Shown: positions 11,038 through 27,610, counted from the stretch's first letter. The stretch is 42,580 bases of DNA from a virus (IMGVR_UViG_2917393062_000002:1-42580); one strand, 5' to 3'. A program made the numbers and translations. The notes: generated by a model from the sequence alone, not told the origin.

Positions 11038-11110
11038 GGGTCCTTCCTGAATTTTGGAACACCGAGGGGATGCGGACACGCAGAAATCGCCAAATTTTTG
11101 CATTTTCATC
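11038..11110 (+). repeat. Copy A of a conserved ~50-90 bp element (GGGTCCTTCCTGAAnnnTGGAACACCGAGGGGATGCGGACnCGCAnAAA...TTTTTGCATTTTCAT)
   Basis: Near-identical to copies at 19365 and 21835; lies about 120-165 bp upstream of helper terS. Confidence 0.6.
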
Positions 11111-11203
11111 GTTCATCACCACCACTGTAATTTATTGATAATGAAAGGTTAAAAAAAAGTTGGTGTCGAAAGTGCTCGTTTTTTGTTCATCACTGGAGGG
11201 TAA

Positions 11204-11704
11204 GTGGATAAGGAACTGAAACACCTTGTTCTTAATGTCAGCCAGTTGGCTGCGCTGTCTGGTGTGCACCGACAGACTGTCGCATCAAGAATCAAAAATG
11301 TCCGAACAGCGGGTGGACATGAAAGTAATCTCAAGCTGTATAAACTTACCGATATTCTGGCAGAGCTAATGAAATTGCCACCGCCTGTCGCTGAAGGGGA
11401 GATGGATCCCCATGACCGAAAAGCCTGGTATCAGTCAGAACGTGAACGCCTGAAATTCGAACAGGAGGTCGGAGAACTGATCCCTGCGTCTGATGTCGCT
11501 CGTGAATTTGCTGAAATGGCAAAGGCTATGGTGCAGGTTCTGGAAACTCTCCCCGATATTCTTGAACGCGATTGTGCTCTTGAGCCTTCGGCTGTCATGC
11601 GGGTGCAAAGCATTATTGATGATCTGCGTGACGAAATTGCACGACGGGTGGCAGATGACAGCAAACAGGAAGATGCAGAGGAGGAAAATCAGGAGGACGA
11701 ATAA
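11204..11704 (+). CDS. terS: Terminase small subunit (helper phage)
   Basis: GTG after GGAGGG; 166 aa; HTH-like N-terminus, acidic C-terminus; stop overlaps terL start; paralogue at 21994..22476. Confidence 0.65.
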   Translation: MDKELKHLVLNVSQLAALSGVHRQTVASRIKNVRTAGGHESNLKLYKLTDILAELMKLPPPVAEGEMDPHDRKAWYQSERERLKFEQEVGELIPASDVAREFAEMAKAMVQVLETLPDILERDCALEPSAVMRVQSIIDDLRDEIARRVADDSKQEDAEEENQEDE

Positions 11705-12699: not shown

Positions 12700-12860
12700 G
12701 GTACATTTCTTACCTGTTTTTATGTTCTGGTGTCGTTTTATAGTCTTTTCAATGAGTTGTGATTTTTTGAGTTTCCTCTCTTTACTTGATAATGAGTTAG
12801 TTTATCGCTTGTTATCGACTTGAATGGACTACATGACGGACTAAAAAATGAGGGCGACAG

Positions 12861-14099
12861 ATGTCGGTAAAGCCATTAACCGTGACTGAAGTTAAGGGGA
12901 TGAAACCACGTGAAAAGGACTATGCTGTTTATGATGGGTTCGGTTTATTGCTGAATGTGAGTAAAGCTGGTGGGAAAGTGTGGCGTTTTCGTTATAGCCA
13001 TCCGATAACGAAGAAACGGCAGACATACACGATAGGGCGTTTTCCTGAATTCTCACTCGCGGAAGCACGGGAAGTACGTGATGAACTTCGGCGAATGATT
13101 GCACGTGGAGTTGATCCAGTGACAGAGAAGAAAAATCGTAAAATTGAGATGGCACTAAAAAATCTACAGACATTTGAATCTGTTGCTAATGCATGGGTTG
13201 CCTTTAAAAAGGGAGCAGAATTGCGGAAGCCTACGTTAAATAACATCGAATATGAAGTATATAAATATCTTGTTCCTTTCTTTGGTAAATATAGTATAGA
13301 TAAGATTACAGCGCCATTAGCAATTAAGATACTGGATGCAGTATCTGATAAAAATGCGTTGCAAAAAAAATTAATATCAAGATTAAATGAAATTATGAAT
13401 TATGCCGTAAATTGTGGTGCGTTAAAAATAAATCCATTGCTTAAAATAAAGACTGCATTCGCTGGAAAGAAAAATAAATCATTGGCTGCGTTACCTATAG
13501 AAAGATTACCTGAATTTCTGAGTTGGTGGGATAGTGTGCCTCATAACTACCAAATAGCGCATAATGCACTTTTATTCCAGGTATTGACCATGGTCAGGCC
13601 GGGAGAGGCGATCCAGGCAGAGTGGTCAGAGATAGATTTTGATGCTGGTCTGTGGGTTATTCCTGAGCATAAAATGAAATGCCATCGTGAACATGTTGTG
13701 CCCCTGTCATCACAGGCCATTAGCATCCTGAGAACAATGCAGGAAATAAAAAGAGGGCGTTATGTATTCTATTCATCCAGAACCAAAGACGCGCCTATGG
13801 GGAGGAAAACTATAAATACTGCGATTACCTCCAGTAAGTTCAAAGGGATTGTAACGTTACATGGTTTTCGTTCGATGTGGAGTACGCTTTTAAATGAGGA
13901 AGGATTTAACCCCGATGTAATTGAGGCTGCATTAGCACATAAAAGTGGTGATAAAATAAGAGATATTTATAATAGAACTACTTATTTAGAACAACGCAAA
14001 ATTATGATGCAATGGGTAGGCGATTTTTTTGATGAGGCGAGAAAAGGGGTAATTAATAGATCCTGTGGTAAGAAAGGTTTGAGAATAGTAAATGGTTGA
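12861..14099 (+). CDS. int: Tyrosine integrase, P4-type
   Basis: 412 aa; P4-type N-terminal arm-binding signature (GGKVWRFRYSHP...FPEFSLAEAREVRDELRRMIARGVDP); C-terminal catalytic region with HGFRS and conserved Tyr; about 160 bp from attL. Confidence 0.85.
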   Translation: MSVKPLTVTEVKGMKPREKDYAVYDGFGLLLNVSKAGGKVWRFRYSHPITKKRQTYTIGRFPEFSLAEAREVRDELRRMIARGVDPVTEKKNRKIEMALKNLQTFESVANAWVAFKKGAELRKPTLNNIEYEVYKYLVPFFGKYSIDKITAPLAIKILDAVSDKNALQKKLISRLNEIMNYAVNCGALKINPLLKIKTAFAGKKNKSLAALPIERLPEFLSWWDSVPHNYQIAHNALLFQVLTMVRPGEAIQAEWSEIDFDAGLWVIPEHKMKCHREHVVPLSSQAISILRTMQEIKRGRYVFYSSRTKDAPMGRKTINTAITSSKFKGIVTLHGFRSMWSTLLNEEGFNPDVIEAALAHKSGDKIRDIYNRTTYLEQRKIMMQWVGDFFDEARKGVINRSCGKKGLRIVNG

Positions 14100-14111
14100 G
14101 GAGTTCAGCAA

Positions 14112-14315
14112 ATGAATACCAATGAAGATATTTTATTTACTAAAGACGTAATGAAAATTTTGCGCTATGGGGCAATGAGCGCATTCATTAATTTCTGGAA
14201 AGATGAAAGCAATGGTTTTCCTCAACCGTTCAGAATTGGGCGGCGGCATACCTGGCACCGTAGAGATGTAGAGGCATGGTTAGATAAACAACGAGAACAG
14301 GCCAATCCCCACTAA
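14112..14315 (+). CDS. AlpA-like small DNA-binding protein (excisionase/regulator candidate)
   Basis: 67 aa; AlpA-like pattern (FPQPFRIGRRHTWHRRDVEAWL); immediately downstream of int. Confidence 0.5.
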   Translation: MNTNEDILFTKDVMKILRYGAMSAFINFWKDESNGFPQPFRIGRRHTWHRRDVEAWLDKQREQANPH

Positions 14316-14374
14316 TAATATCTTTCATACCCCGCACACAATGCGGGGTTTTTTGTATGTGAGGTAAAAAAACG

Positions 14375-14956
14375 ATGAATAAAAATATTGCCGTGACGGG
14401 CAAGGGTGACGCTCGTCCAGTGAAAAATTTCTGCAATATTCGTGATCTAATCGTTCTGCGCTTTGATGGCGTGGATGTTCGCGTGGTGTATCTGAATGGC
14501 GATCCGTGGTTTGTTGCAAAGGATGTTTGTGAAGCTCTGGAAATAAGCAACTCACGCGATGCTCTAAAAGCTCTGGATGTGGATGAGAAGAATACCGTCG
14601 CTTTAAGCTACGGTATTCGCGGAAATCCAAATCATAGCGTCGTTTCTGAATCTGGTTTTTACAAGCTGATCGCCAGAAGTCGCAAAGCTGTTACTCCTGG
14701 CACGTTCGCCCATCGTTTCAGTAATTGGGTATTCAGAAATGTGATACCGGGTATCAGAAAAACGGGGGCTTATGGTATCCCGTGGGGCGCATTACAGGAT
14801 TTTTCCCGCCGTAAAGAGCAATATCAGATAAGTGCCAGCGAGAAGGGGAGGGAGCTACAGGCATGTAAGCGCAAAAAGCGTGAGCTGGAGGAAGAAGAAA
14901 AAAGGCTGATACGTGAATATCAGCCTGAGTTTTACTTTGACAACTGCATTCAGTGA
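14375..14956 (+). CDS. Bro-N domain protein (antirepressor-like)
   Basis: 193 aa; N-terminal Bro-N-like motifs (WFVAKDVCEALEI, SESGFYKLIARSRK, FSNWVFRNVIPGIRKTGAYG). Confidence 0.6.
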   Translation: MNKNIAVTGKGDARPVKNFCNIRDLIVLRFDGVDVRVVYLNGDPWFVAKDVCEALEISNSRDALKALDVDEKNTVALSYGIRGNPNHSVVSESGFYKLIARSRKAVTPGTFAHRFSNWVFRNVIPGIRKTGAYGIPWGALQDFSRRKEQYQISASEKGRELQACKRKKRELEEEEKRLIREYQPEFYFDNCIQ

Positions 14957-15049
14957 CAAAACAAAGGCGACCGGGGGCGGTCGCCAATGGGAAAACACTA
15001 AACATAAGCACGGGGATGATAGCCGCTATCAGGCTGGTGGGCAATGCAA

Positions 15050-15238
15050 TCAGTCTTGTTCAGTTCGTTGCCATACCTGCAATGAGCGCGTTTCCCTGTA
15101 CTCTTTAAGGAATTGCTCAAGGGCAAAAGCACATGGCGCGAATCTTTCTGATTCATGCTCTATCTTTCTGCGCCGTCTTTTCCGTGCCGGTGATAATGTT
15201 TTGGTCAATTCTTTATCGGTCATTGTGTTGTCCTGCAT
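15050..15238 (-). CDS. Hypothetical basic protein, possibly co-transcribed with the RHH-like gene
   Basis: 62-aa minus-strand ORF downstream of the RHH-like gene; weak RBS. Confidence 0.25.
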   Translation of the reverse strand: MQDNTMTDKELTKTLSPARKRRRRKIEHESERFAPCAFALEQFLKEYRETRSLQVWQRTEQD

Positions 15239-15280
15239 AGCAATGCGCCGTAATACCTTACACCACGGCGCTGGTGATGG

Positions 15281-15460
15281 TTATTCCTGCTCTTTGGCCT
15301 TGCGACGCTGGCGGTATTCAACTTCTCGCTTTAATGCTGCTGTTACAAACTGCCCTGTACTTTCACCAGGCATTTTTACCGCCTCAACATTGTTCATAAC
15401 TTCATGCGGAACCCTTGCCGCAACTGTTTGTGATTTTGCGTTTACTGCTTTTGTCGCCAT
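15281..15460 (-). CDS. Small ribbon-helix-helix-like DNA-binding protein (candidate island repressor), 59 aa
   Basis: Minus-strand ATG at 15460 preceded by AAGGGG; MATKAVNAKSQTVAARVPHEVMNNVEAVKMPGESTGQFVTAALKREVEYRQRRKAKEQE (beta-strand then two helices); divergent from operator repeats; below ORF-track cut-off. Confidence 0.4.
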   Translation of the reverse strand: MATKAVNAKSQTVAARVPHEVMNNVEAVKMPGESTGQFVTAALKREVEYRQRRKAKEQE

Positions 15461-15510
15461 GTTGTGTACCCCTTACAAAAAACAAATGCAGTATGCAGGA
15501 AAAAAAATAA

Positions 15511-15562
15511 GTGTTCAACACTTGACGTGTTTAACACCAGGGCTTAAATTGGTGTTCAACAC
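15511..15562 (+). promoter_or_regulatory. Three palindromic operator-like sites GTGTT(C/T)AACAC overlapping a candidate rightward promoter
   Basis: GTGTTCAACAC at 15511 and 15552, GTGTTTAACAC at 15527; TTGACG at 15522 and TTAAAT about 17 bp downstream; between divergent RHH gene and rightward operon. Confidence 0.5.
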
Positions 15563-15658
15563 CTTGTTGATGCAAGGTGCAGAAACGACGAAACCCGGCA
15601 GTGCGCTAACACTAACCGGGCTTCTAACCACCAACGATAGAAAGCGTATCGAGGTAGC

Positions 15659-15866
15659 TATGTTAAATCATACCACACACCCGCAAGGGCGGGACTCGCA
15701 CAACCTGAATAAATACATCTGGCGTTTTATCGCCCTGAGCACGGCACAACCGCGCGTGATTACCATTGAGGCCACCAGCGAACAGGAAGCACGCCAGCAA
15801 TCTCCTGATGGCTGTGTGATGGTATTCGCCGCCCGTATTCGCCAGGGGGTGCACCATGTGCAATAA
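15659..15866 (+). CDS. Hypothetical protein (first gene of rightward island operon)
   Basis: ATG after GAGG; 68 aa C-terminal part of a 317-aa track ORF whose upstream part looks non-coding. Confidence 0.35.
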
Positions 15867-16086
15867 AAACACGCCGGACGCAGCAGGCGAAGCATTGAAA
15901 GTACTGATACATGCGCTTGTGGATATAAATTGCATGGTAGAGATCATGGAGAAGAAATCACAGTCGGAGTACGACAAAAGAAAATTTAAAACAATAAAAA
16001 TAATTACCAAAAACTCACTGACAAAAGCTACAGACATCCTCAATGAGGACACTAAAAGAATCAGGGGGAAACTGTGTGATGCATAA
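15856..16086 (+). CDS. Hypothetical protein
   Basis: 76-aa ORF overlapping upstream stop; AGGGGG upstream. Confidence 0.35.
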   Translation: MCNKNTPDAAGEALKVLIHALVDINCMVEIMEKKSQSEYDKRKFKTIKIITKNSLTKATDILNEDTKRIRGKLCDA

Positions 16087-16306
16087 AATACCTTTTGATG
16101 TTCTTATTCATTCTGAAAACGCATTAATCCGCGCAAAGGAAATGGAGGCATTATTACTTAAGTTAATGGAAGTGCCGGAAAATGGCGATGAATCATATCC
16201 CATGATGTTTTCTGCCGTGCACACATTATTAACGCCAGTAATTAACGAATTAAATACGGTGATGGCAATTCACGAGAATAATAAAACGCATCACACCGGA
16301 GAATAA
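16079..16306 (+). CDS. Hypothetical protein (start 16079, or 16043 per ORF track)
   Basis: In-frame ATG at 16079 preceded by GGGGAAA; overlaps upstream stop. Confidence 0.35.
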   Translation: MHKIPFDVLIHSENALIRAKEMEALLLKLMEVPENGDESYPMMFSAVHTLLTPVINELNTVMAIHENNKTHHTGE

Positions 16307-16311
16307 AAACC

Positions 16312-16611
16312 ATGAAACAGAAAAATTCTGGCTTTACTGCCAGCGGCCTCTCTCGGCCTGAAATCCGCCCCGGCGATATTTTCAAAGATAAATACGGCGG
16401 CACTGTAACGATTAAAAGCGTGGCGGGACGGTGTGTTACTTACCGCCGTGATGGGTACGGCTATGACTGCGTGATGCCTGTTTATCAGTTCCGGCGTGAT
16501 TTTTCTCTGGTACAGAACGCAACACGCGGTAAGCCCACCAGCAGGGAAAAAGCACGGGAAAATATTAAGAAAATAAAAAGCATGCTCAGCGCATCCAGAG
16601 GTAAAAAATGA
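16312..16611 (+). CDS. Hypothetical basic protein
   Basis: 99 aa; GGAG upstream; stop overlaps primase start. Confidence 0.4.
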   Translation: MKQKNSGFTASGLSRPEIRPGDIFKDKYGGTVTIKSVAGRCVTYRRDGYGYDCVMPVYQFRRDFSLVQNATRGKPTSREKARENIKKIKSMLSASRGKK

Positions 16612-18356
16612 AACTGGCACCGAACGTAAAAAAACAGCCTCGCGGAATAAAAAACAAAGACACAGAGGTAATTATTTTCGCGGGTAGTGATGCCTGGTCG
16701 CATGCGCAACAGTGGCAGGAGAAGGACGGTCCCGCATCCGGCGATAATGTGCCGCCTGTGTGGCTTGGGCCAAATCAGCTTGCCGAACTTGATGCGCTGA
16801 AAATTGTTCCGGATGGAAAAAAACGCGTAAGGCTGTACCAGGCCGGAGAACTGGATTTAGTGGAGACCAAAAAGATTGGTCAGAAGCTGGCGGCGGCAGA
16901 TATTCAGGATGCGAATTTTTACCCTGAAGGAATGCACGGTCAGAAGTGTGAAAACTGGCGGCGCTATTTGAATGCTGAGCGTGAAAATATTGCCGCAGGG
17001 CTTACCATGCCGGAGCAGAAAAATACGCAACTGGCACAGATGGCAGACAGTGAGCGCGCACAGATGCTTGCTGGTCGGTTTGATGGCGTATGTGTGCATC
17101 CGGAAAGTGAAATCGTTCACGTCTGGCGCGGCGGGGTATGGTGTCCGGTCAGCACAATGGAACTGAGTCGCGAAATGGTGGCGATTTATTCAGAACATAA
17201 GGCCACTTTCAGCAAGCGCGTAATCAGTAACGCCGTTGAAGCGTTAAAAGTTATTGCCGAACCAATGGGCGAGCCGTCCGGTGATTTGCTGCCGTTCGCC
17301 AATGGTGCGCTTGACCTGAAAACGGGGGAATTTTCCCCGCACTCGCCGGAGAACTGGATCACCACGCACAACGGTATTGAATACACGCCGCCAGTACCAG
17401 GGGAGAATATCCGCGACAACGCGCCAAACTTTCATAAATGGCTTGATCACGCTGCCGGAAAAGATCCGGGCAAGATGATGCGTATATGCGCCGCGCTATA
17501 CATGATTATGGCGAACCGGTACGACTGGCAGATGTTTATTGAGGCCACCGGAGACGGCGGGAGCGGCAAGAGCACTTTCACGCACATAGCCAGCCTTCTG
17601 GCAGGGAAACAGAACACAGTAAGCGCTGAGATGACATCGCTTGATGATGCTGGTGGGCGTGCGCAGGTTGTCGGGAGTCGGCTTATTGTCCTGGCAGACC
17701 AGCCGAAATATACAGGCGAAGGCACGGGCATCAAGAAAATCACGGGCGGCGACCCCGTGGAAATTAACCCGAAATATGAAAAGCGTTTCACAGCGGTAAT
17801 CAGGGCGGTTGTGCTGGCAACCAATAATAACCCGATGATATTCACCGAACGGGCCGGAGGCGTGGCACGTCGTCGCGTGATTTTCCGTTTCGACAATATC
17901 GTCAACGAGGCCGAAAAAGACAGGGAACTACCGGAAAAGATTGCGGCTGAAATCCCCGTCATTATCCGCCGATTACTGGCGAACTTTGCAGACCCTGAAA
18001 AGGCGCGGGCTTTACTACTGGAACAGCGTGACGGTGATGAAGCACTGGCGATAAAGCAGCAAACGGATCCGGTTATTGAGTTTTGCCAGTTCCTGAATTT
18101 TCTGGAGGAAGCACGCGGCCTGATGATGGGCGGCGGTGGCGATTCCGTGAAGTACACGACCAGAAACAGCCTTTACCGCGTCTATCTGGCGTTTATGGCA
18201 TACGCAGGCAGAACCAAACCACTAAACGTAAATGACTTTGGCAAGGCCATGAAGCCAGCCGCAAAAGCTTACGGACATGAATATATTACGCGAAAAATTA
18301 ATGGGGTGACGCAGACTAACGCAATAACAACCGACGATTGCGACGCGTTTTTATAA
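16608..18356 (+). CDS. Primase/helicase-type replication protein (P4 alpha / D5-like NTPase domain)
   Basis: 582 aa; Walker A GDGGSGKST, Walker B-like LIVLAD; immediately followed by an iteron array. Confidence 0.75.
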   Translation: MKLAPNVKKQPRGIKNKDTEVIIFAGSDAWSHAQQWQEKDGPASGDNVPPVWLGPNQLAELDALKIVPDGKKRVRLYQAGELDLVETKKIGQKLAAADIQDANFYPEGMHGQKCENWRRYLNAERENIAAGLTMPEQKNTQLAQMADSERAQMLAGRFDGVCVHPESEIVHVWRGGVWCPVSTMELSREMVAIYSEHKATFSKRVISNAVEALKVIAEPMGEPSGDLLPFANGALDLKTGEFSPHSPENWITTHNGIEYTPPVPGENIRDNAPNFHKWLDHAAGKDPGKMMRICAALYMIMANRYDWQMFIEATGDGGSGKSTFTHIASLLAGKQNTVSAEMTSLDDAGGRAQVVGSRLIVLADQPKYTGEGTGIKKITGGDPVEINPKYEKRFTAVIRAVVLATNNNPMIFTERAGGVARRRVIFRFDNIVNEAEKDRELPEKIAAEIPVIIRRLLANFADPEKARALLLEQRDGDEALAIKQQTDPVIEFCQFLNFLEEARGLMMGGGGDSVKYTTRNSLYRVYLAFMAYAGRTKPLNVNDFGKAMKPAAKAYGHEYITRKINGVTQTNAITTDDCDAFL

Positions 18357-18370
18357 TTTTTGGCAATTGC

Positions 18371-18590
18371 TGTCTACCTTGTCTACCTGATTACATAAAA
18401 GTTGTTTTAATTCAGTGTATTAATTTAGGTAGACAGCTTTTTTTTACTGTCTACAAGCTATCTACACTGTCTACCTGTTTTTGTAGCCAGCCGGAGGGAT
18501 GAGTAGACATCAGGTAGATAGTGGTTTTTTACTGTCTACATCCATTAAACCCGCGTCATTACTGGCCTGAGCATCTATCAGGTAGACAGA
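18371..18590 (+). repeat. Iteron array / candidate island replication origin
   Basis: At least 10 copies of TGTCTAC(C/A) or its complement GGTAGACA in both orientations, interspersed with A/T tracts, directly downstream of the primase/helicase gene. Confidence 0.75.
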
Positions 18591-18645
18591 GTAGACAAGG
18601 TGGGGGTAGGCCTAAAACTTTTTAAACGAGGGGGTAAAAATAAAA

Positions 18646-18903
18646 ATGCACACATCAGAAAAATTTAACAATCAGAAGAAATCACATAACCGCGCCATTG
18701 ACCTTACAGAGCACTGGCTGAGGGTGGCGATAAAAATCATCGACCGCAACGCGGGAGAAGGATACGCGAAAGCGCATCCCGAACTGATAAGCGCATTCAT
18801 GAACACAGCGGCGGCAAACTTTGCCACGCTGACAGAACGGGAGATTGCGGAAGCGGAACAGGTGACAACTATCAACGTTAAAACCGGAGAACAGACAGCA
18901 TGA
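18646..18903 (+). CDS. Hypothetical protein
   Basis: 85 aa; GAGGGGG upstream; stop overlaps SSB start. Confidence 0.4.
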   Translation: MHTSEKFNNQKKSHNRAIDLTEHWLRVAIKIIDRNAGEGYAKAHPELISAFMNTAAANFATLTEREIAEAEQVTTINVKTGEQTA

Positions 18904-19322
18904 CAGCACAGATAGCGGCTTACGGGCGGCTGGTGGCTGACCCGCAGTTAAAGACCACCAGCAAGGGAACACAAATGGCGATGGCGAGTATGGCTGTTCC
19001 CCTGCCGTGCAGCCAGGCCGATGACGGAACGGCGACAATGTGGTTATCCGTCCTGGCGTTTTGCAGACAGGCCGACGCACTGGCAAAACACCGCAAAGGC
19101 GAACTGGTGAGCGTGGCGGGTAACATGCAGGTAAGCCAGTGGACAGGCCAGAACGGCGAAACGCGGCAGGGCTGGCAGGTTATCGCAGACAGCGTAATCA
19201 GTGCGCGAACGGCGCGACCGGGCGGCAAAAAAGGCCAGCAGGGCCAGGCTACTGACGCACTGAACAGGGCAAAACAACAGGCGGGAAATGATGATCCGTA
19301 CGGGGATAACATACCGTTTTAA
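18900..19322 (+). CDS. ssb: Single-stranded DNA-binding protein (SSB-like)
   Basis: 140 aa; OB-fold-like core (LSVLAFCRQADALAKHRKGELVSVAGNMQVSQWTGQNGETRQGWQVIADSV), Gly/Gln linker and acidic tail ending DNIPF like SSB DDDIPF. Confidence 0.7.
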   Translation: MTAQIAAYGRLVADPQLKTTSKGTQMAMASMAVPLPCSQADDGTATMWLSVLAFCRQADALAKHRKGELVSVAGNMQVSQWTGQNGETRQGWQVIADSVISARTARPGGKKGQQGQATDALNRAKQQAGNDDPYGDNIPF

Positions 19323-19338
19323 GCAACGAGTGACAGAA

Positions 19339-19362
19339 GCCGGGATTTTTCCCGGTTTTTTT
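19339..19362 (+). terminator. Rho-independent terminator
   Basis: CCGGG-atttt-CCCGG + TTTTTTT after ssb. Confidence 0.65.
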
Positions 19363-19364
19363 AT

Positions 19365-19450
19365 GGGTCCTTCCTGAAAAATGGAACACCGAGGGGATGC
19401 GGACGCGCAGAAAACGGCTGGTTTTTGCATTTTCATGGTGGCGGCAGCAT
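19365..19450 (+). repeat. Copy B of the conserved element
   Basis: TTTTTTTATGGGTCCTTCCTGAAAAATGGAACACCGAGGGGATGCGGACGCGCAGAAAA...GCAGCAT; identical to copy C over about 55 bp including spacing from the upstream terminator. Confidence 0.6.
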
Positions 19451-19730
19451 GTGTGATAATTAATTGATAATTAAAAATTATTTCTGTTTTCACCTGTACA
19501 ATCTTTTTTCTCCCCCTGTCATCAGACCAGTTTGCAATTAATTGAAATATATAAACAAATTTGTTTTTCACCTGCCAAATGGAGCTGCCTATGTCAAATG
19601 TGATTGGGATTGGTGATGCTTATCACTGGCACACAAAAATGAATATTGCATATTTTGCAATGCAATTGATCATCATTGCATTTTGATCAACACTGCACAC
19701 TTCAAATATCAGTCTGAAACGAGGTGTTAC

Positions 19731-19934
19731 GTGAACGAAAAGAAAGCTGTATCGGTTTATCTCGACAATGAAACGGCGCTTGCCCTGTACCGTTTGCGCG
19801 AAGATATTCGCAAGAAAAATGCAGAAACGGGAATGGATCTTCCCACGCCAACAGTCGGCTGGCTTGCCCGTTCATTGTTGCGTCAAAGCCTGGGAATTAA
19901 GGCAGACAAAAAAGATTTGCCTCATGAGGGGTAA
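19731..19934 (+). CDS. Hypothetical small protein
   Basis: GTG 7 nt after GAGG; 67 aa; immediately upstream of island capsid gene. Confidence 0.35.
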   Translation: MNEKKAVSVYLDNETALALYRLREDIRKKNAETGMDLPTPTVGWLARSLLRQSLGIKADKKDLPHEG

Positions 19935-19936
19935 GG

Positions 19937-21781
19937 TTGATGGAAATTTCATTGTATGAGCCAATCGAAGGCGTAACCGCAAGACAGTTCCGCGATTCAC
20001 TTATGGCTGCAAAAGGCCCGGTTACGGTTGCCATAAACAGCGGTGGCGGAAATGTAACTGACGGCATGGCGATGTTTAACGCCCTGAGAACGTACAAAGG
20101 CCACACGGTCGCAAGAATCGACGGTATCGCCGCATCAATGGCTACCATTGTTGCGCTCGGTGCCCGGCGTGTCGTGATGGCTGATAACGGCTGGTGGATG
20201 ATCCATAACCCGTGGGGCGTTTTTGTTGGTGAATCGGAAGATCTCCGCAAAAAAGCCGACATGATGGAAAAAATCGGCAAGGCAATGCTTGATACCTACG
20301 TTGCCAAAACCGGATTACCGGAATCAGAAATCAAAGCCATGATGGATGCTGAAACATGGCTGACGGCTGAGGAAGCGAAAGAAAAAGGATTTATTGATGA
20401 AATTTATCCGGCAGAGGGACAGGCATTAGCCATGGCCCCTGGTTGCGGATCACTGGTAGAGAAATTTACCAGAACGCCGGAAAGCATCATCGCATCGATG
20501 AAGAAAGGCGACACGGGATCAGCAAACGAAAGAGAGAAGCGAAAAAAAGAAGCCGACGTTTTGTTTGCTTACTGGAAGAATTCTTCGTATGAGTGGTTGC
20601 CAGGAATTGTTGAAGAATTTATCAGCGGTTCCATCACTGCCGAAGAAGCACGTAAAAAACACTTAGAAAAACTGGCGGAAGAGACAACGCCGTGCGCAGG
20701 ACCAGGAGCAATGAACATGTATGCAGGTAACGGTAATATTGTTGGGGATTCAGTAAAAGCGGCGCTTATGGCACGCAGTGGACTGGCGGATGTGGAAAAA
20801 GATAACCGCTATAACGGTTATTCATTGCGGGAACTGGCGCGCGCTTCTCTGGTGGATCGTGGGGTAAGCGGCATTCCAGGTAATCCGCTGGGCATGGTTG
20901 GAATGGCGTTTACTCACAGCAGTAGTGATTTTGGCGGCATTCTTGCGGACGTGGCGCATAAATCATTACTGAAAGGCTGGGAAGATTCGCCGGAGACGTT
21001 CCACGCCTGGACGAAAAAAGGCACTCTGACAGATTTTAAGGTTGCCCATCGTGTTGGTATGGATGGTTTTAAATCTCTGCGAAAAGTTTTGCCAGGCAGC
21101 GAATATAAATACGCGTCCACGTCCGATCGCAGCGAGCCAATTGCACTGGCAACTTATGGCGAACTGTTCAGCATAGATCGCCAGGCAATCATCAATGACG
21201 ACATGAGCGCACTGACTTCAATCCCCCAGCAAATGGGGGCAGCAGCAAGCCGCACAGTCGGGGATCTGGTTTATGCCGTTCTCGTGGCCAATCAGAAGAT
21301 GGGCGATAAAAACCCGCTCTTTGATGCGAAACACAGCAATCTGATTAACAGCGAACTTGATATTCCAGGCCTGAGTGCAGCCCGTAAAGCTATGCGTATG
21401 CAAAAAAATAATGCTGGTGCTGTACTGAATATTCCGCCTCGTTTCCTGTTAGTTCCGGTAGAACTGGAAGACAGAGCAACCCAGCTTATTCGTTCTACGT
21501 CGCTACCAGACGCGCAGAACAGCGGTGTGTTTAACCCATACAATGATGCACTGACAGTAATCACAGAGGCGCGACTTGATGCCGACAGCGTGAAATCCTG
21601 GTATCTGCTTGCGGGTCAGGGAAGTGATACAATTGAAGTCGCTTATCTCGATGGTATTGATACCCCGTACCTGGAACAGCAGCAGGGCTTTACGGTTGAC
21701 GGCGTAACTTTCAAAGTGCGCATTGATGCCGGAGTTTCTCCTCTGGACTGGCGCGGGATGGTTAAGTCATCAGGTGGTTAA
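19937..21781 (+). CDS. Island prohead protease (ClpP-like)-linker-major capsid protein fusion
   Basis: 614 aa; N-terminal ClpP/S14-like domain; C-terminal ~330 aa about 70% identical by eye to the helper capsid domain (GNGNIVGDS...IEVAYLDGIDTPYLEQQQGFTVDG). Confidence 0.8.
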   Translation: MMEISLYEPIEGVTARQFRDSLMAAKGPVTVAINSGGGNVTDGMAMFNALRTYKGHTVARIDGIAASMATIVALGARRVVMADNGWWMIHNPWGVFVGESEDLRKKADMMEKIGKAMLDTYVAKTGLPESEIKAMMDAETWLTAEEAKEKGFIDEIYPAEGQALAMAPGCGSLVEKFTRTPESIIASMKKGDTGSANEREKRKKEADVLFAYWKNSSYEWLPGIVEEFISGSITAEEARKKHLEKLAEETTPCAGPGAMNMYAGNGNIVGDSVKAALMARSGLADVEKDNRYNGYSLRELARASLVDRGVSGIPGNPLGMVGMAFTHSSSDFGGILADVAHKSLLKGWEDSPETFHAWTKKGTLTDFKVAHRVGMDGFKSLRKVLPGSEYKYASTSDRSEPIALATYGELFSIDRQAIINDDMSALTSIPQQMGAAASRTVGDLVYAVLVANQKMGDKNPLFDAKHSNLINSELDIPGLSAARKAMRMQKNNAGAVLNIPPRFLLVPVELEDRATQLIRSTSLPDAQNSGVFNPYNDALTVITEARLDADSVKSWYLLAGQGSDTIEVAYLDGIDTPYLEQQQGFTVDGVTFKVRIDAGVSPLDWRGMVKSSGG

Positions 21782-21807
21782 CAGATAATCAGGCATGTTA
21801 TGTTTTT

Positions 21808-21833
21808 TTGCGGCCTTCGGGCCGCTTTTTTTA
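21808..21833 (+). terminator. Rho-independent terminator
   Basis: GCGGCC-ttcg-GGCCGC flanked by T-runs. Confidence 0.65.
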
Positions 21834-21834
21834 T

Positions 21835-21920
21835 GGGTCCTTCCTGAAAAATGGAACACCGAGGGGATGCGGACGCGCATAAATCGAGAGATTTTTGATA
21901 TTTTATGCGTGCAGCAGCAT
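21835..21920 (+). repeat. Copy C of the conserved element
   Basis: Same core as A and B; about 110-160 bp upstream of island terS. Confidence 0.6.
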
Positions 21921-21993
21921 AAGTTTAATGCTTTGATTTTTAACATTATTGATTTGTTTTGTTGAAAAAGCGACCGTGCAGTGAGGTGGTAAA

Positions 21994-22476
21994 GTGGAAC
22001 TGAGCAAAATGCAGGTTAATGTCTCACAACTGGCAGACCTGGTAGGCATGAATCGAAATCTTGTTTCACGCCGTTTGCGTGAGCTGGAGCTTGTTGGCGG
22101 GAATGGTGAGAATCTTAAACTGTATGAACTCGGTCCGGCACTTCAGGCACTACTGACCCCATCAATGAAAGAAAATGGTGAAATGTCACCACAGGATCGG
22201 AAAGCCTGGTATCAGTCAGAAAATGAAAGGCTGAAATTTGAAGCAGCTTCACGTGAATTACTCCCTGTCGAAGAGGTGGCCCGTGAATATTCATCTCTGG
22301 CTAAAGCCGTAGTCATGGTGCTGGAAACGTTGCCGGATATTCTTGAGCGCGATTGCGCTCTCCAGCCTTCCGCAGTCATACGAGTGCAACGCATTATTGA
22401 TGATCTACGTGATGAAATGGCGAGAAAAATTGCAGAAAGCGATTCAGATAATGGCTGGCCTGCATGTACAAGATGA
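21994..22476 (+). CDS. terS: Island terminase small subunit paralogue
   Basis: 160 aa; C-terminal half almost identical to helper TerS (VLETLPDILERDCAL.PSAV.RVQ.IIDDLRDE), N-terminal HTH region divergent. Confidence 0.65.
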   Translation: MELSKMQVNVSQLADLVGMNRNLVSRRLRELELVGGNGENLKLYELGPALQALLTPSMKENGEMSPQDRKAWYQSENERLKFEAASRELLPVEEVAREYSSLAKAVVMVLETLPDILERDCALQPSAVIRVQRIIDDLRDEMARKIAESDSDNGWPACTR

Positions 22477-22692
22477 GTGAACTGCTGGAAAGAAACGGCT
22501 ACGGGAAAGAACCATTATCGTGATGGTATTGCGATATCAAAATTCATTTATAGCGACATATTTAGCTTTTAATTAGTATTGCCGCCTTTTTTTCTTTTTT
22601 ATCACTTAAACAGGTACTAAATCTTGGACTATGTAGATGGGGCCATAGCAAAATAGTATTTTATAATCATTTAGTTACCTTTTATTTACTTC

Positions 22693-22702
22693 TTCCTGGA
22701 TG
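22693..22702 (+). other. Right junction (attR-like) with core CTGGATG
   Basis: AT-rich island DNA ...TTCTTCCTGGATG|GAAGGGCCGG resumes terL coding sequence. Confidence 0.5.
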
Positions 22703-23827
22703 GAAGGGCCGGCTGCTGCGTATCAGACCTGGGCGCAACTGGTTTACAAACTACTGACTGCTGAGCAGGAATATGAAGCCACAGGCAGTGAGGAAACACT
22801 GAAGGCGGTGATTAACACCGACTGGGGATTACCTTATTTGCCTCGTTCCGCAATGGAGCTGCGTAGTGCGGATGTTCTGATGCAGCGGGCCGAGGACTAC
22901 GGTAAGCGCCTGGTACCGCCGAAAGTACGTTTTCTTATTGCGGCTGTGGACGTGCAGGGCGGGAAGAACCGACGGTTTGTGGTGCAGATTATTGGCTATG
23001 GCGAGGACGGCGAACGCTGGCTGGTGGACCGTTATAACATCCGACAGTCATTGCGCTGCGATGAAAATGGCGAAGCATTACCTGTGCATCCCGGGGCTTA
23101 TCCTGAAGACTGGCAGTTGCTGGTCACCGATGTACTGGAGAAAACGTATCCGCTCCAGTCCGATCCGGCCCGCAGAATGCCTGTACTGGCAATGGCGGTG
23201 GACAGTGGTGGTGAGGACGGGGTGACGGATAACGCCTATAAATTCTGGCGAAAATGTCGTCAGGATGGACTGGGGCGACGGGTTTTTCTGGTAAAGGGAG
23301 ACAGCACGAAACGCCAGAAAATTATCACCATCACACACCCGGATAATACCGGGCGAAGCGATCGTCGTGCTGATGCTCAGGGAAAGGTGCCGGTATATCT
23401 CCTGCAGACAGACCTGCTGAAAGATCAACTAAGCAATAACCTGCAACGTGAAATGCCCGGACCGGGCTACATTCATTTTCCTGACTGGCTCGGGGAGTGG
23501 TTTTATGAAGAGTTGACCTATGAGGAACGCGGTGCTGACGGGAAATGGCGCAAGCCGGGAAAAGGGAATAACGAAGCGTTTGACCTTTTTTGCTATGCCC
23601 ATGCTGTCGCCATTCTGCGTGGCTATGAAAAAATCCGTGACTGGAGCAATCCTCCCCAGTGGGCAAGGGGGCAGGATGCTGATGCGGGGGCTTCAGCAGA
23701 CAGACGTTCTTCCGGCACAGTGGACAAGAAAAACGTTGCCGGAAGAGATGAGCGGCAAAAAGCAGCGTCGCCGGAAGCGTTATCCGGAAACTGGTTATCA
23801 CTACCCCGAAACGGAGGATGGTTGTGA
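22700..23827 (+). CDS. terL: Terminase large subunit, C-terminal (nuclease) part
   Basis: 375 aa GpA-like C-terminal domain; in frame with 11704..12696 once 12697..22702 is removed. Confidence 0.8.
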   Translation: MEGPAAAYQTWAQLVYKLLTAEQEYEATGSEETLKAVINTDWGLPYLPRSAMELRSADVLMQRAEDYGKRLVPPKVRFLIAAVDVQGGKNRRFVVQIIGYGEDGERWLVDRYNIRQSLRCDENGEALPVHPGAYPEDWQLLVTDVLEKTYPLQSDPARRMPVLAMAVDSGGEDGVTDNAYKFWRKCRQDGLGRRVFLVKGDSTKRQKIITITHPDNTGRSDRRADAQGKVPVYLLQTDLLKDQLSNNLQREMPGPGYIHFPDWLGEWFYEELTYEERGADGKWRKPGKGNNEAFDLFCYAHAVAILRGYEKIRDWSNPPQWARGQDADAGASADRRSSGTVDKKNVAGRDERQKAASPEALSGNWLSLPRNGGWL

Positions 23828-24051: not shown

Positions 24052-25563
24052 ATGGGTTTTTTTGATAAAGCACTTGGCGCAATTGCGCCAGGGTGGGCGG
24101 TTTCGCGCGCCAGAAACAAAATGCTGCTGAGAGCTTATGAGGCGGCGCAGCCTTCACGCCTGAATAAAGCCCGGCGCGAGAGTCGTTCTGCCGAGACTGC
24201 GGTTTTTTCTGCCTGTACCTCGTTAAGGGAGCAGGCCAGGGCGCTGGATGAAGATCACGATATCGTGATTGGTCTGCTGGATAAGCTGGAAGAGCGGGTT
24301 ATTGGCGCGCAGGGGATCCAGGTTGAACCACAACCACTGAGAAGCGATGGCACCCTGCATGAATCGCTGGCAGAGCAGATCTCGGCATTGTGGTCTGAAT
24401 GGTCTGTTCGCCCTGAGGTCACGGGGATGTTCACCCGTCCGGAGGCCGAACGGATGGCATTGCGATCTGCTTTGCGTGATGGCGAGATGTTCGTACAACT
24501 GGTGCGTGGTCCTGTCGCCGGTCTGAATCATTCCACTGTGGTGCCATTATCACTGGAACTTCTCGAAGCAGATTTTGTTCCGGTCAGTCTGAACACGAAC
24601 GCGGGTCAGCAAGTCCGTCAGGGCATTATTCTTAACAACTGGGGGCGGCCTGTAGGGTATCGGGTTTATAAATACCATCCTGCAAATATGCGTGGATTCA
24701 GCGCCGATCTCAAAACTGTTCACGCAGACAGCATGCTTCATCTGGCGATGCGGAAACGGCTTCATCAGGTGAGAGGTGTCAGCCTGTTACATGGTGTGAT
24801 TCGCCGGATTGCTGATCTGAAAGATTACGAAGAATCAGAGCGTGTGGCTGCCCGTATTGCTGCCGCGCTGGGTTTCTACATTAAGCGTGGTGATGCCGCC
24901 AGCTTTCCGACGGATAACGACTGGACACCCACAGAACAAAAACCCCGGTATTTTGATATTTCACCGGGCATGATTTTTGACGAACTGGCCCCCGGTGAAG
25001 ATCTGGGGATGGTGGAGTCGAATCGTCCGAATGTTCATCTTTATGAATTCCGGAACGGGCAGTTGCGTGCTGTGGCTGCCGGAACCCGTGGCAGTTATTC
25101 CAGTATTGCCCGTGACTATAACGGCTCCTACAGTTCGCAGCGTCAGGAGCTGGTGGAAGGTTACGAAGGCTACGGGGTTTTACAGCAGTGGTTTGTCGGT
25201 CAGTACAGCCGCCCGGTGTACCGGGCATGGCTGGAGCAGGCGATACCTTTTCTTGAAATTTCTCCTGATGTGGATATGTCCACACTTTTCAATGCCACTT
25301 ATCTTGGCCCGGTGATGCCGTGGATTGATCCGGTGAAGGAGGCTGCAGCATGGCGGGCCATTCTTCGCGGTGGTGCCGGGACGGAGGCTGAGTGGATACG
25401 TGCCCGTGGGCAGTCACCGCAGGAGGTCAAACGTCAGCGACTGCGTGAAACTGAATTTAACCGGGAAAACGGGCTGGTGTTCGATTCTGACGCCGCTAAC
25501 GATAAAGGAGCGATCCCTGATGCAGCAAATGATAAACCCGCGTCTTCGCGGGACGATGATTAA
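24052..25563 (+). CDS. Portal protein (lambda B-like)
   Basis: 503 aa; size and position between W and protease/capsid; acidic C-terminus. Confidence 0.75.
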   Translation: MGFFDKALGAIAPGWAVSRARNKMLLRAYEAAQPSRLNKARRESRSAETAVFSACTSLREQARALDEDHDIVIGLLDKLEERVIGAQGIQVEPQPLRSDGTLHESLAEQISALWSEWSVRPEVTGMFTRPEAERMALRSALRDGEMFVQLVRGPVAGLNHSTVVPLSLELLEADFVPVSLNTNAGQQVRQGIILNNWGRPVGYRVYKYHPANMRGFSADLKTVHADSMLHLAMRKRLHQVRGVSLLHGVIRRIADLKDYEESERVAARIAAALGFYIKRGDAASFPTDNDWTPTEQKPRYFDISPGMIFDELAPGEDLGMVESNRPNVHLYEFRNGQLRAVAAGTRGSYSSIARDYNGSYSSQRQELVEGYEGYGVLQQWFVGQYSRPVYRAWLEQAIPFLEISPDVDMSTLFNATYLGPVMPWIDPVKEAAAWRAILRGGAGTEAEWIRARGQSPQEVKRQRLRETEFNRENGLVFDSDAANDKGAIPDAANDKPASSRDDD

Positions 25564-27610
25564 TCCCCGCGCCAGCCTTGCGGGGGTGGATGCCGCTAAT
25601 GGTCAGTGCTGGTATGAAATCCGTGCACAGACTGCCGGGCGGGTGGAAATTTACCTCTATGACGTGATTGGCGGATGGGGCATCACCGCGCAGCAGTTTA
25701 TTTCTGACTGTAAAAATGCGGGAGTGTTTGAGGCCAGCGCCATTGATCTGCATATCCACAGCCCGGGCGGTGATGTGATGCAGGGCTTTGCCATCTTTAA
25801 CACGCTGTCACGCCTGAAAGCGAAGGTGGATATCTGGGTGGACGGTGTTGCTGCCAGCATGGCCTCCATGATTGTCTGCCTGCCCGGCGCCACCGTGCAT
25901 ATGCCTGAAAACGCCTGGCTGATGGTGCACAAGCCGTGGGGCGGGATCGCCGGTGATTCTGATGATATGCGTGATTATGCCGACTGGCTGGATCGCAATG
26001 AGGCGCTGATGCTGTCAGCCTACATGAATAAAACCGGACTCGGGCAGGATGAGCTGGAAGCCATGCTGAAAGCAGAAACCTGGCTGAACGGTGCTGAAGC
26101 CGTGGAAAAAGGCTTCGCTGATACGCTTGAACCTGAATTACAGGCTGCGGCCTGTGTGAACCAAAATAAACTGAAGGATTATCATAACATGCCAAAACAG
26201 CTTAACGCGCTTTTTGCTCCACGTGCAGAAACGACGAACGGACAGCCGCAGGAGACGAAAGCAACCCCGCAAAATGCGCAACAGATCGCTGCTCAGCAGA
26301 CACCATCAACCGGAAATGTGGATATCAGCGCAATTGCTTCGCAGGTTCAGCAACAACTGATGGCAGCCAATGCGGAACGTGTGCAGGCGGTAACCGCAGT
26401 TTTTGCCTCTTTCCCGTCTTATGCCGCACTGAAAGCGGAGTGTCTGAACGACATGACCTGTACGGAAGCACAGGCCCGTGAAAAACTGTTGCAGGCGCTG
26501 GCAGCCGGAACGACACCAAGTGCAGGCCCGGGCGCTGTTCATATTCATGCCGGGAACGGTAATCTGGTCGGCGATTCCATTCGTGCGGCTGTGATGGCAC
26601 GCGCCGGATATGCCGAAGCAGAAAAAGATAATGCTTATAACGGTTTTACTCTGCGCGAGCTGGCGCGTGCTTCGCTGGTTGATCGCGGTATCGGTATCTC
26701 CGGTCATTCCGCACCGATGGCGATGGTTGGGCTGGCATTTACTCACAGCAGCAGCGATTTCGGCAATATCCTGATGGATGTGGCTCATAAAGCTGCGTTG
26801 CAGGGATGGGATGATGCCAGCGAAAATTTTGACAAATGGACCCGCAAGGGAACGCTGACTGATTTTAAAACCGCGCATCGTGTCGGGCTGGAAACTTTCC
26901 CTACGCTGCGAAAAGTATTGCCGGGGGCTGAATATAAATATGTGACCCTGAAAGATCGTGGCGAACCGATTGCACTGGCGACTTATGGCGAATTGTTCAG
27001 CATTGATCGCCAGACCATCATCAATGATGACCTGGATATGCTGACCCGTATTCCGATGGCAATGGGGGCGGCAGCGCGTACTACCGTGGGTGATCTGGTC
27101 TGGGCCGTGCTGACCAGCAATCCGAAAATGTCGGATGGTAAACCGCTGTTCCATGCAGATCATGGCAACCTGGTGACTGCCGATTTGTCTATTGAGGGGC
27201 TGGATTCCGGGCGTAAAGCCATGCTGCTCCAGAAATCGGGTGACCGTCGCCTGAACATTCGTCCTGCTTTTATGTTGACGCCTGTTGCCATTGAGTCGCG
27301 TGCCAATCAGTTGATTAAGTCTGCCAGCGTGCCTGGTGCAGATGCGAACAGCGGCATTATTAACCCGATTCAGAATTTTGCCACGGTTCTGTCAGAGGCC
27401 CGTCTTGATGACAGCAGCCCGACGGATTATTACCTGGTGGCAGCGCAGGGGCGTGACACGATTGAAGTGGCTTACCTCGACGGTATTGATACGCCGTATC
27501 TGGAGCAGCAACAGGGCTTTACGGTTGATGGTGCAGCATTCAAGGTGCGCATTGATGCCGGAGTGGCACCGCTTGACTGGCGTGGCATGGTCAAAGTGAA
27601 AAAACAATAA
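25520..27610 (+). CDS. Helper prohead protease (ClpP-like)-scaffold-like linker-major capsid protein fusion
   Basis: ATG at 25520 after AAGGAG (track ORF begins 25370); ClpP-like N-terminal domain, about 130-aa Q/A-rich linker, HK97-fold-like C-terminal capsid domain. Confidence 0.8.
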   Translation: MQQMINPRLRGTMINPRASLAGVDAANGQCWYEIRAQTAGRVEIYLYDVIGGWGITAQQFISDCKNAGVFEASAIDLHIHSPGGDVMQGFAIFNTLSRLKAKVDIWVDGVAASMASMIVCLPGATVHMPENAWLMVHKPWGGIAGDSDDMRDYADWLDRNEALMLSAYMNKTGLGQDELEAMLKAETWLNGAEAVEKGFADTLEPELQAAACVNQNKLKDYHNMPKQLNALFAPRAETTNGQPQETKATPQNAQQIAAQQTPSTGNVDISAIASQVQQQLMAANAERVQAVTAVFASFPSYAALKAECLNDMTCTEAQAREKLLQALAAGTTPSAGPGAVHIHAGNGNLVGDSIRAAVMARAGYAEAEKDNAYNGFTLRELARASLVDRGIGISGHSAPMAMVGLAFTHSSSDFGNILMDVAHKAALQGWDDASENFDKWTRKGTLTDFKTAHRVGLETFPTLRKVLPGAEYKYVTLKDRGEPIALATYGELFSIDRQTIINDDLDMLTRIPMAMGAAARTTVGDLVWAVLTSNPKMSDGKPLFHADHGNLVTADLSIEGLDSGRKAMLLQKSGDRRLNIRPAFMLTPVAIESRANQLIKSASVPGADANSGIINPIQNFATVLSEARLDDSSPTDYYLVAAQGRDTIEVAYLDGIDTPYLEQQQGFTVDGAAFKVRIDAGVAPLDWRGMVKVKKQ

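Follow-up and report, generated by a model that had tools for sequence, protein, structure and literature searches.

A full-length small terminase in a satellite embedded in its helper's terL, with its own cosB and a probable role in retargeting the helper large terminase

Why does a phage satellite that sits inside the large terminase gene of its helper carry a small terminase gene of its own? The question is raised by a 42,580-nt stretch of viral DNA (IMGVR_UViG_2917393062_000002:1-42580, the window), in which a 10,006-bp island interrupts terL, the gene for the large terminase subunit (TerL), of a lambda-headed myovirus prophage, the helper. Two genes for the small terminase subunit (TerS) lie on the + strand, the helper terS at 11204-11704 and an island gene at 21994-22476, which we name terS' (protein TerS'). 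A sequence-only reading of the window had placed both open reading frames (ORFs) correctly and proposed that the island protein directs the helper TerL onto island DNA, as TerS proteins of Staphylococcus aureus pathogenicity islands (SaPIs) do. The best reading of terS' is that it encodes a complete and presumably functional small terminase, and its role is best explained, and in our judgement probably so, by retargeting of the helper TerL to satellite DNA, on grounds that partly differ from those first given.

The two proteins belong to one family. Both TerS' (160 aa) and the helper TerS (166 aa) matched DUF1441 of Pfam (E 3e-39 and 4e-46) and PHROG 141 'terminase small subunit', and BLASTP aligned them with 60% identity across 149 aa (E=1e-60). 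terS' starts with GTG preceded by a GAGGTG ribosome-binding site, and encodes a satellite-type 'MNRN' DNA-binding domain; the helper protein has the 'MDKELK/HRQT' DNA-binding type, and the stop codon of its gene overlaps the terL start. Pairwise alignment showed that the divergence is uneven rather than equal along the whole protein. Identity was 41% in the winged helix-turn-helix (HTH) region (residues 1-55), 40% in the linker (residues 56-65), 71% in the central helices (residues 66-124; 73% across clades) and 72% in the last helix (residues 125-149), while the tails (residues 150-end, the last 11-16 residues) were unrelated, with 7% identity. The proposed divergence of the N-terminal HTH-like region therefore stands, at 41% versus about 72% in the helical core, and the shared stretch quoted for the C-terminal half (VLETLPDILERDCAL.PSAV.RVQ.IIDDLRDE) is correct. 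'Nearly identical' overstated this half, which is more conserved than the N-terminus but reaches only about 72% and ends in an unrelated tail that the sequence-only reading had overlooked.

The nonsynonymous divergence (dN) between the two genes was 0.73 in the N-terminal part versus 0.22 in the rest, and the synonymous divergence (dS) was saturated in both (1.5 and 1.2). Saturated dS together with low dN in the core indicated that the conserved C-terminal part results from purifying selection on an old paralogue pair, not from recent copying. A recent origin of the conserved C-terminus from the resident helper, by duplication or gene conversion, was considered and is ruled out by a dS of 1.2-1.5 throughout.

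The differences are concentrated in the predicted DNA-reading surface. An AlphaFold2 model of TerS', built with a 46-sequence alignment (mean predicted local distance difference test score 83), contains a strand-helix-turn-helix-wing-helix arrangement at residues 7-54, followed by long helices at residues 66-88, 92-121 and 125-149 and a disordered tail. Using hhalign, residues 7-51 were placed on residues 2-48 of the lambda Nu1 DNA-binding domain with a marginal E of 0.002. The recognition helix and the wing of this Nu1-like winged HTH hold most of the differences between TerS' and the helper TerS. In lambda/21 chimeras, the N-terminal half of TerS sets the specificity for cosB, and the C-terminal half sets that for TerL (PMC9026076). 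Two further DUF1441 proteins, P0106 and P0107, combine a satellite-type N-terminal domain with an unrelated C-terminal end and are natural chimeras. Their composition is consistent with modular exchange of DNA-binding and C-terminal parts.

Which part of TerS' could bind TerL is less simple. The sequence-only reading had taken the conserved C-terminal core as a sign of contact with the TerL of this helper. This argument fails, as the core is conserved throughout DUF1441, in phages and satellites alike: VLET.PD.LERDCAL is present in Proteus, Rahnella and Tritos-type DUF1441 proteins, and the core is also conserved in Klebsiella. The idea of a C-terminus co-adapted to this particular helper is unsupported for the same reason. 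The extreme tail is a different matter. TerS' ends in ESDSDNGWPACTR, with the satellite-type motif E-S-[DE]-x-x-x-G-W-P (window 22441-22476, residues 150-160; E-S-D-x-x-x-G-W-P in TerS'), which in the comparison of P0001-P0095 is absent from phage TerS proteins. The helper TerS ends in acidic DDSKQEDAEEENQEDE, and all phage TerS seen end in acidic runs (…EEE), facing a basic TerL N-terminus. The last 30-40 residues of lambda TerS are its TerL-binding part (PMC9026076). By analogy, the tail, which is satellite-specific and unlike that of the helper, is the best candidate for the TerL contact of TerS'.

The well-conserved central region also bears on a different role. Instead of retargeting, or besides it, TerS' could interfere with the helper: it would co-assemble with the helper TerS through the central oligomerisation helices and poison recognition of the helper cos, with an outcome like that of SaPI Ppi or of Rpp from phage-inducible chromosomal islands (PICIs). 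The 71% identity of residues 66-124 to the helper protein would suit such co-assembly; Rpp, a TerS-like winged-HTH protein, acts by heterodimerising with phage TerS (PMC9026076); and the split terL is already a handicap that the satellite imposes on the helper. A pure poison, however, would need neither a full-length protein nor a conserved cosB of its own, and we regard interference as unlikely to be the explanation. It is not exclusive of retargeting, and both can hold.

Retargeting would require a DNA site that TerS' can distinguish, and candidate sites were found as a repeat. A repeat search of the window gave a 99-nt family at 11025-11123, 19352-19450 and 21822-21920. The linear record of phage Tritos begins GGGCGGGAGCGT/CGCGGAAAAAGG, 196 nt 5' of its DUF1441-type terS. 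The joined Tritos ends aligned with the window repeats over 54 nt without gaps, and they also aligned gap-free with the lambda left end, GGGCGGCGACCT/CGCGGG. The alignment of the repeat with both the Tritos record start and lambda cos identifies it as a lambda-like cos site. A shared late promoter or antitermination RNA had been considered for the repeat; it had no Rfam match at the gathering or E<=10 thresholds and gave weak folding z-scores, and the candidate was dropped after the Tritos and lambda cos alignment. The cosN, predicted as 12 nt by homology to the deposited record start, lies at 11067-11078 in the helper (GGGATGCGGACA) and at 19394-19405 and 21864-21875 in the island (both GGGATGCGGACG), and no further cosN copies were present elsewhere in the window.

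The three sites share one layout and differ in the putative TerS-binding motif. Relative to cosN, each has a conserved block at -29, an R3-equivalent at +45 and an exact consensus for integration host factor (IHF) at +62 to +75, which corresponds to the R3-IHF-R order of lambda cosB at a fixed distance from cosN (PMC9026076). The sites are identical up to cosN, and the R position reads GTTCATCACCACCAC in the helper, CGTGCAGCAGCAT in the second island site (cos2) and GTGGCGGCAGCATG in the first (cos1). The helper cos (11038-11193, +) has the conserved block GGGTCCTTCCTG at 11038-11049, the R3-equivalent GTTCATCAC(CACCAC) at 11111-11125, the IHF consensus at 11128-11140 and a proximal repeat GTTCATCAC at 11185-11193. 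cos2 (21835-21983, +), just 5' of terS', has the conserved block at 21835-21846, the R3-equivalent at 21908-21920 (with CGTGCAGCAGC at 21908), the IHF consensus at 21926-21938 and a proximal repeat CGTGCAGTG at 21975-21983. At both of these sites, the second copy of the R motif stands just before the terS start.

The position of this proximal repeat allows one more interpretation of the gene. CGTGCAG lies 11-19 nt 5' of the terS' start codon, and the Pfam entry for DUF1441 still reads 'unknown function', so the protein could be a transcription regulator that binds repeats over its own ribosome-binding region and has no part in packaging. This seems very improbable to us. Phage members of the family always stand directly 5' of gpA terL and 3' of cos (Tritos, 80 IMG/VR loci), PHROG 141 and PHROG 57 are both families of terminase small subunits, and an R3-IHF-R arrangement at a fixed distance from cosN is the layout of lambda cosB.

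cos1 (19365-19686, +) has the conserved block and cosN of the helper but a Tritos-type cosB, with GTGGCGGCAGCATG at the R3 position, the IHF consensus at 19457-19469 and TTTTCACCTG twice, at 19487 and 19565. It is followed at 19591-19686 (+) by 31 codons of a Tritos-type terS (MSNVIGIGDAYHW...). cos1 and this remnant look like a decayed earlier cos-terS module, and three matched cos/TerS types are found within one 42-kb window. The cosB of cos1 is nearly identical to those of Tritos and the E. coli 2A helper, so a Tritos-like TerS would package the island. One could then suppose that here the island is packaged through the helper TerS or by a second helper, and that terS' and cos2 matter only with other helpers, as extenders of the helper range. 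The PICI EcCICFT073 also has two cosN sequences, and deletion of either lowers its transfer (PMC6092414); moreover, the contig from which the window comes holds another prophage with another satellite. Both island cosN copies, however, match the resident helper and not Tritos (GGGCGGGAGCGT), and the window contains no Tritos-type terS. We give this extension of range little credence.

The agreement of cosN between island and helper was not limited to the window. It was found in three independent composites, namely the window (GGGATGCGGAC), E. coli 2A (GGGCGGGAGCG) and E. coli ERL03-1416 (GGGCGG(G/A)...), and it fits nicking of the island by the helper TerL. In the E. coli loci L001 and L002, whose islands carry another cosN, the pattern GGAACACCGAGGGGATGCGGAC was absent. 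The ERL03-1416 sister island has no terS, and its cosB matches that of its helper. Apparently, an island needs either the cosB of its helper or a TerS of its own.

To see where genes like terS' occur, we looked up seven members of its clade, which covers homologues with 69-98% identity that are common in Salmonella, E. coli, Citrobacter, Enterobacter, Klebsiella and Rahnella. They gave about 22 places in at least six genera. All were satellites, with the gene at the satellite end after a primase/helicase, a 64-70-aa ORF and a ClpP-capsid fusion, and in none of the places examined was it next to terL. The elements were integrated in terL, in the portal gene, in the ClpP/capsid gene, beside the cement gene, at fis or in the chromosome close to rpoD. 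In IMG/VR, the family alignment recovered 80 loci, all with a helper-type terS beside terL that was 72-99% identical to the helper terS, and none of these genes was more than 62% identical to terS'. Within the satellite clade, identity was 76% in the DNA-binding domain versus 83% in the rest, and dN/dS was 0.04-0.10, alike in the N- and C-terminal parts, which indicates strong purifying selection. As the DNA-binding domain is about as conserved as the rest within the clade, the N-terminal difference is a discrete switch between clades and not a relaxation of constraint. By these sequence comparisons, terS' is not derived from the resident helper but belongs to an old satellite-only lineage.

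A late module of capsid fusion and TerS is common to satellites at fis, in the helper ClpP/capsid gene and in the helper portal gene (loci L101-L103 from Klebsiella, L104 from Rahnella and L091-L094 from Citrobacter). The occurrence of one module at different sites indicates that it moves between satellites with different integration modules.

The cosB motif accompanies this TerS type. The block TATGCGTGCAGCAGC at the R3 position is the longest invariant stretch 5' of terS' in Escherichia, Citrobacter, Enterobacter, Klebsiella and Rahnella, and GTGCAG recurs at the proximal position in the same five genera, while the spacer and cosN vary, the latter with the local helpers. Among 14 satellite-type loci, all 8 distinct upstream sequences had at least two GTGCAG within 150 nt, compared with 0 of 70 distinct phage-type upstream sequences; TCATCAC was found only with the phage type. 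Phage subtypes with other variants of the DNA-binding domain have other repeats.

These data also bear on whether terS' might be a passive capture, a leftover or 'backup' late gene taken from the helper by recombination in the Late zone. PICIs do take up helper late genes (Tommasini et al., PMC10111431), cos1 with its 31-codon remnant shows that cos-terS modules are acquired and then decay, and sister islands lack terS. Against such a capture, the clade occurs only in satellites of at least six genera, its dN/dS is as low as stated with saturated synonymous sites, its cosB is conserved together with the gene, and a dS of 1.4 to the resident helper gene argues that it was not captured from this helper. 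We consider passive capture improbable.

The insertion in terL determines when the restored target could be available. The element occupies 12697-22696 between two CTGGATG cores, attL at 12690-12696 and attR at 22696-22702 (both +), and only this exact 7-bp core is duplicated. It splits the gpA-type terL exactly at the boundary of the ATPase and nuclease domains, a point absent from the sequence-only reading. The 5' fragment (11704-12699, +, 331 aa; GpA_ATPase, PF05876, E 4.7e-80) ends at a TAG supplied by the island, and the 3' fragment (22700-23827, +, 375 aa) carries GpA_nuclease (PF20454, E 3.8e-86). The junctions read AGCTTCTGGATG/TAGGG and TTCTTCCTGGATG/GAAGGG. An IMG/VR relative that is 97% identical (L008) has an uninterrupted terL with ...AGCTTCTGGATGGAAGGC..., encoding S-F-W-M-E-G-P, and the window terL is collinear with it up to 12696 and again from 22692 on. 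From this alignment, excision would rebuild S-F-W-M-E-G-P in terL, the ATG of the attR core providing the Met codon. Since terL is broken while the island is integrated, any retargeting of TerL needs excision first.

Sequence data show the gene and the family it belongs to, where the island is inserted, how the cos sites are built, how the clade is distributed and what selection acts on it; from this we infer the DNA-binding specificity, the TerL contact, the role of the capsid protein and the order of events. After induction, the satellite would excise through Int and AlpA and so rebuild the helper terL. The winged HTH of TerS' would then bind its own cosB, made of CGTGCAGCAGCAT 45 bp from cosN, the IHF site and the proximal CGTGCAG repeat, and TerS' would recruit the helper TerL through the family-conserved helical core, its own tail or both. 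TerL would nick the satellite cosN GGGATGCGGACG, which has the sequence of the helper, and satellite concatemers would be packaged, probably into capsids built with the satellite ClpP-capsid fusion. The helper TerS, with its cosB motif GTTCATCACCACCAC, should not recognise the satellite cos, and the converse should hold too. Of the retargeting first proposed, the idea itself has gained from a separate cos2 that joins the helper cosN to a distinct R3-equivalent and proximal repeat, from the divergent residues in the recognition helix and wing, and from the joint travel of TerS type and cosB motif in five genera while cosN changes. What it has lost is the argument from the C-terminus, with a family-wide core and a satellite-specific tail, and any origin as a recent helper copy.

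Several observations weigh against retargeting. The association of cosB with the DNA-binding domain could be plain linkage, the two being adjacent, and the position of cosN comes from homology to the Tritos record start. All phage TerS seen have acidic tails, from which that of TerS' differs wholly, so the TerL contact is uncertain, and the TerS core of the E. coli 2A island is not close to that of the 2A helper. E. coli sister islands, including that of O157:H7, have no terS; megablast found the cos2-terS' module (type C) in no complete E. coli genome, only the attR/terL part being matched. The two cos sites of the island further have the same orientation and lie 2,470 bp apart; EcCICFT073 with its two cosN is a precedent for this in one PICI. 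Finally, a promoter scan gave no sigma-70-like promoter in 19200-22750, and a strong terminator-like hairpin (GCGGCCTTCGGGCCGC plus a T run, 21810-21832, +) stands just 5' of cos2. Expression of terS' therefore needs antiterminated read-through or an unrecognised promoter.

Comparison with known systems places the island between several of them. The helper-embedded PICIs (HE-PICIs) were described by Tommasini, Mageeney & Williams in 2023, with Eco567.11capE of E. coli NRG857c as founder; they sit in helper late genes, have no replacement sequence in attP and show four ordered zones (PMC10111431). The island likewise lies inside and co-oriented with a helper late gene (terL), lacks a replacement sequence in attP, so that the helper gene is broken until excision, and has the zones in the order Int/AlpA, Bro, replication (DUF4222/primase/SSB) and Late. 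Again as in HE-PICIs, its Late zone includes a capsid gene, and it has a cos site in common with the helper. It differs in its integrase, which has 26% identity and 86.7 bits to the 11capE Int (WP_000896726.1), where the survey used a cut-off of at least 400 bits (PMC10111431, Supplementary Table 1). Its gpA-type terL site is not among the 14 published late-gene sites; the portion of the supplement available to us has neither a GpA-type site name nor TTCTGGATGGAAGG (PMC10111431), which makes the absence probable but not certain, and the island does not appear in the accessible part of the catalogue. The doubled HE-PICI arm motif TGTATTGC (tgTGTATTGCantgTGTATTGCa; 81 bp 5' and 132 bp 3' of the attP centre) is absent from the island at -81 and +132; single copies with one mismatch occur at -175, -125 and +251, and a different doubled motif, TTATCG, at +109/+119. 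In addition, 11capE has no terS, and the main text of PMC10111431 mentions neither an island-encoded terS nor DUF1441.

With the SaPIs (SaPI1/SaPIbov1 TerS_S, 80alpha-type TerL), the island shares a satellite homologue of the helper TerS that is thought to pair with the helper TerL and direct it to satellite DNA. SaPIs, however, package from pac by headful, with a TerS of another fold family and a separate TerS inhibitor, Ppi, whereas the island is of the cos type, with lambda-like cosN, cosB and IHF sites and a gpA-family TerL, and no Ppi-like gene was identified in it. The SaPI analogy of the sequence-only reading is thus apt for function and protein logic but not for mechanism, which is cos/cosB rather than pac/headful. 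The Rpp-bearing PICIs (EcCICFT073 type; Fillol-Salom 2019, PMC6739421; Murialdo & Feiss 2022, PMC9026076) are also enterobacterial cos-type satellites whose cos keeps the helper cosQ and cosN with a cosB of its own, and in which a satellite winged-HTH protein gives the new specificity. Rpp, in contrast, is a short protein without a TerL-binding C-terminus and has to form heterodimers with the helper TerS, while TerS' is full length (160 aa) with the whole family helical core and could in principle replace the helper TerS. The system therefore resembles the Rpp-bearing PICIs in DNA logic and SaPI TerS in protein logic.

The cf-PICIs (Alqurainy et al., bioRxiv 10.1101/2022.09.08.507074) also have their own capsid protein and TerS. 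They are reported to encode all small-capsid and DNA-packaging proteins and to borrow only tails, whereas the island has only a protease-capsid fusion and TerS and so must borrow TerL, portal, connectors and tail. By analogy with lambda gpNu1 (lambda/21), a winged HTH would span an IHF bend to bind the R elements of cosB, which lie at a set distance from cosN, and the C-terminal part would bind gpA; the modules are exchangeable there, as in the chimeric P0106 and P0107. Phage terS lies directly 5' of terL and 3' of cos in the helper, Tritos and the 80 IMG/VR loci as in lambda, but in the island no terL follows terS', the similarity to Nu1 is marginal and confined to the DNA-binding domain, and the Pfam family differs (DUF1441).

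PICI-encoded TerS of the SaPI kind and HE-PICIs are already known, and terS homologues of some Gram-negative PICIs have been noted in passing (Fillol-Salom et al. 2018). We found no published description of a cos-type satellite TerS with its own cosB, of a satellite-only DUF1441 clade, or of a gpA-terL integration site with a separate integrase lineage. Satellites are known to hijack packaging in three characterised ways, through SaPI TerS (pac), through Rpp (a cos adaptor) and, in the cf-PICIs, through their own TerS and TerL; a cos-type satellite TerS of full length, paired with a cognate cosB, would add a fourth. More tentatively, and with doubt outweighing confidence, we suggest a 'lock and redirect' strategy by a widespread enterobacterial satellite lineage on lambda-headed helpers. 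Sitting in terL, or in a portal or capsid gene, the satellite would block packaging until it excises; then a full-length satellite-clade TerS with its own cosB and G-W-P tail would capture the restored TerL, with cosN re-matched to the local helper. If so, this would be the first cos-type satellite to replace the helper TerS outright instead of adapting it via Rpp, and embedding in helper late genes would have arisen in a second integrase lineage. Virulence and defence genes travel with satellites, which also determine the amount of helper phage that a lysogen releases. The locus offers a clean natural setting in which to ask which residues of TerS recognise cosB and through which part TerS binds a gpA-type TerL.

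The island integrase was detected in 95 of 5,426 complete E. coli genomes, and in 84 of them (~1.5% of the total), including O157:H7 and O111, together with attL inside terL. The terL halves there (loci L001, L002 and L108) are annotated as two pseudogenes, and a prophage with a split terminase may be wrongly scored as defective. The O157 element 'SpLE2' was considered as a possible instance and ruled out, since it sits between cobU and yeeB.

All main island genes are on the + strand, co-oriented with the helper late gene. A tyrosine integrase (12861-14099, 412 aa; Arm-DNA-bind_3 and Phage_integrase) is followed by an AlpA-like excisionase/regulator (14112-14315, 67 aa; PHROG 66, a weak HTH_17 match, and called as a gene in locus L003) and, in the Bro zone, by a Bro-N protein recognised by family matches (14375-14956). 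A 317-aa ORF at 14913-15866 is probably not a gene, with family matches only in its last ~90 residues; the genes called in this interval are a 59-aa YlcI/YnfO-like ORF at 15281-15460 (-) and a 68-aa Icd-like small protein at 15660-15866 (+; PHROG 6196, with Icd-like annotation in E. coli relatives). The replication zone comprises a DUF4222 protein and a D5-type primase/helicase (16312-18356, +) and a single-stranded DNA-binding protein (SSB; 18900-19322, +). In the region 19731-21781 (+), a 67-aa ORF (19731-19934) without an informative family match precedes the ClpP-protease/major-capsid fusion (19937-21781, 613-614 aa). Its paralogue in the helper, at 25370-27610, is longer (a 746-aa ORF; 696 aa as called in L003). 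The island fusion always accompanies the satellite TerS, and it may build satellite-sized capsids. The uninterrupted close helper relative L008 has a contig of 40,190 bp, very nearly four times the island length of 10,006 bp, a match that may be relevant if full-size capsids are used.

The helper early region contains Rfam matches to isrK (2695-2772) and C4 antisense RNA (2796-2880), a P1/P4-type RNA immunity region, followed by two tRNA genes at 7373-7445 and 7452-7523. The source contig of the window, PDHZ01000026.1 (GCA_004745115.1), also carries an HE-PICI at 199942-215384 that is catalogued in PMC10111431 as Ese18.15.A_Terminase_1_246, inside another prophage, Ese18.59.potB. At least two helper-embedded satellites are thus present in this genome, each in a terminase of a different family.

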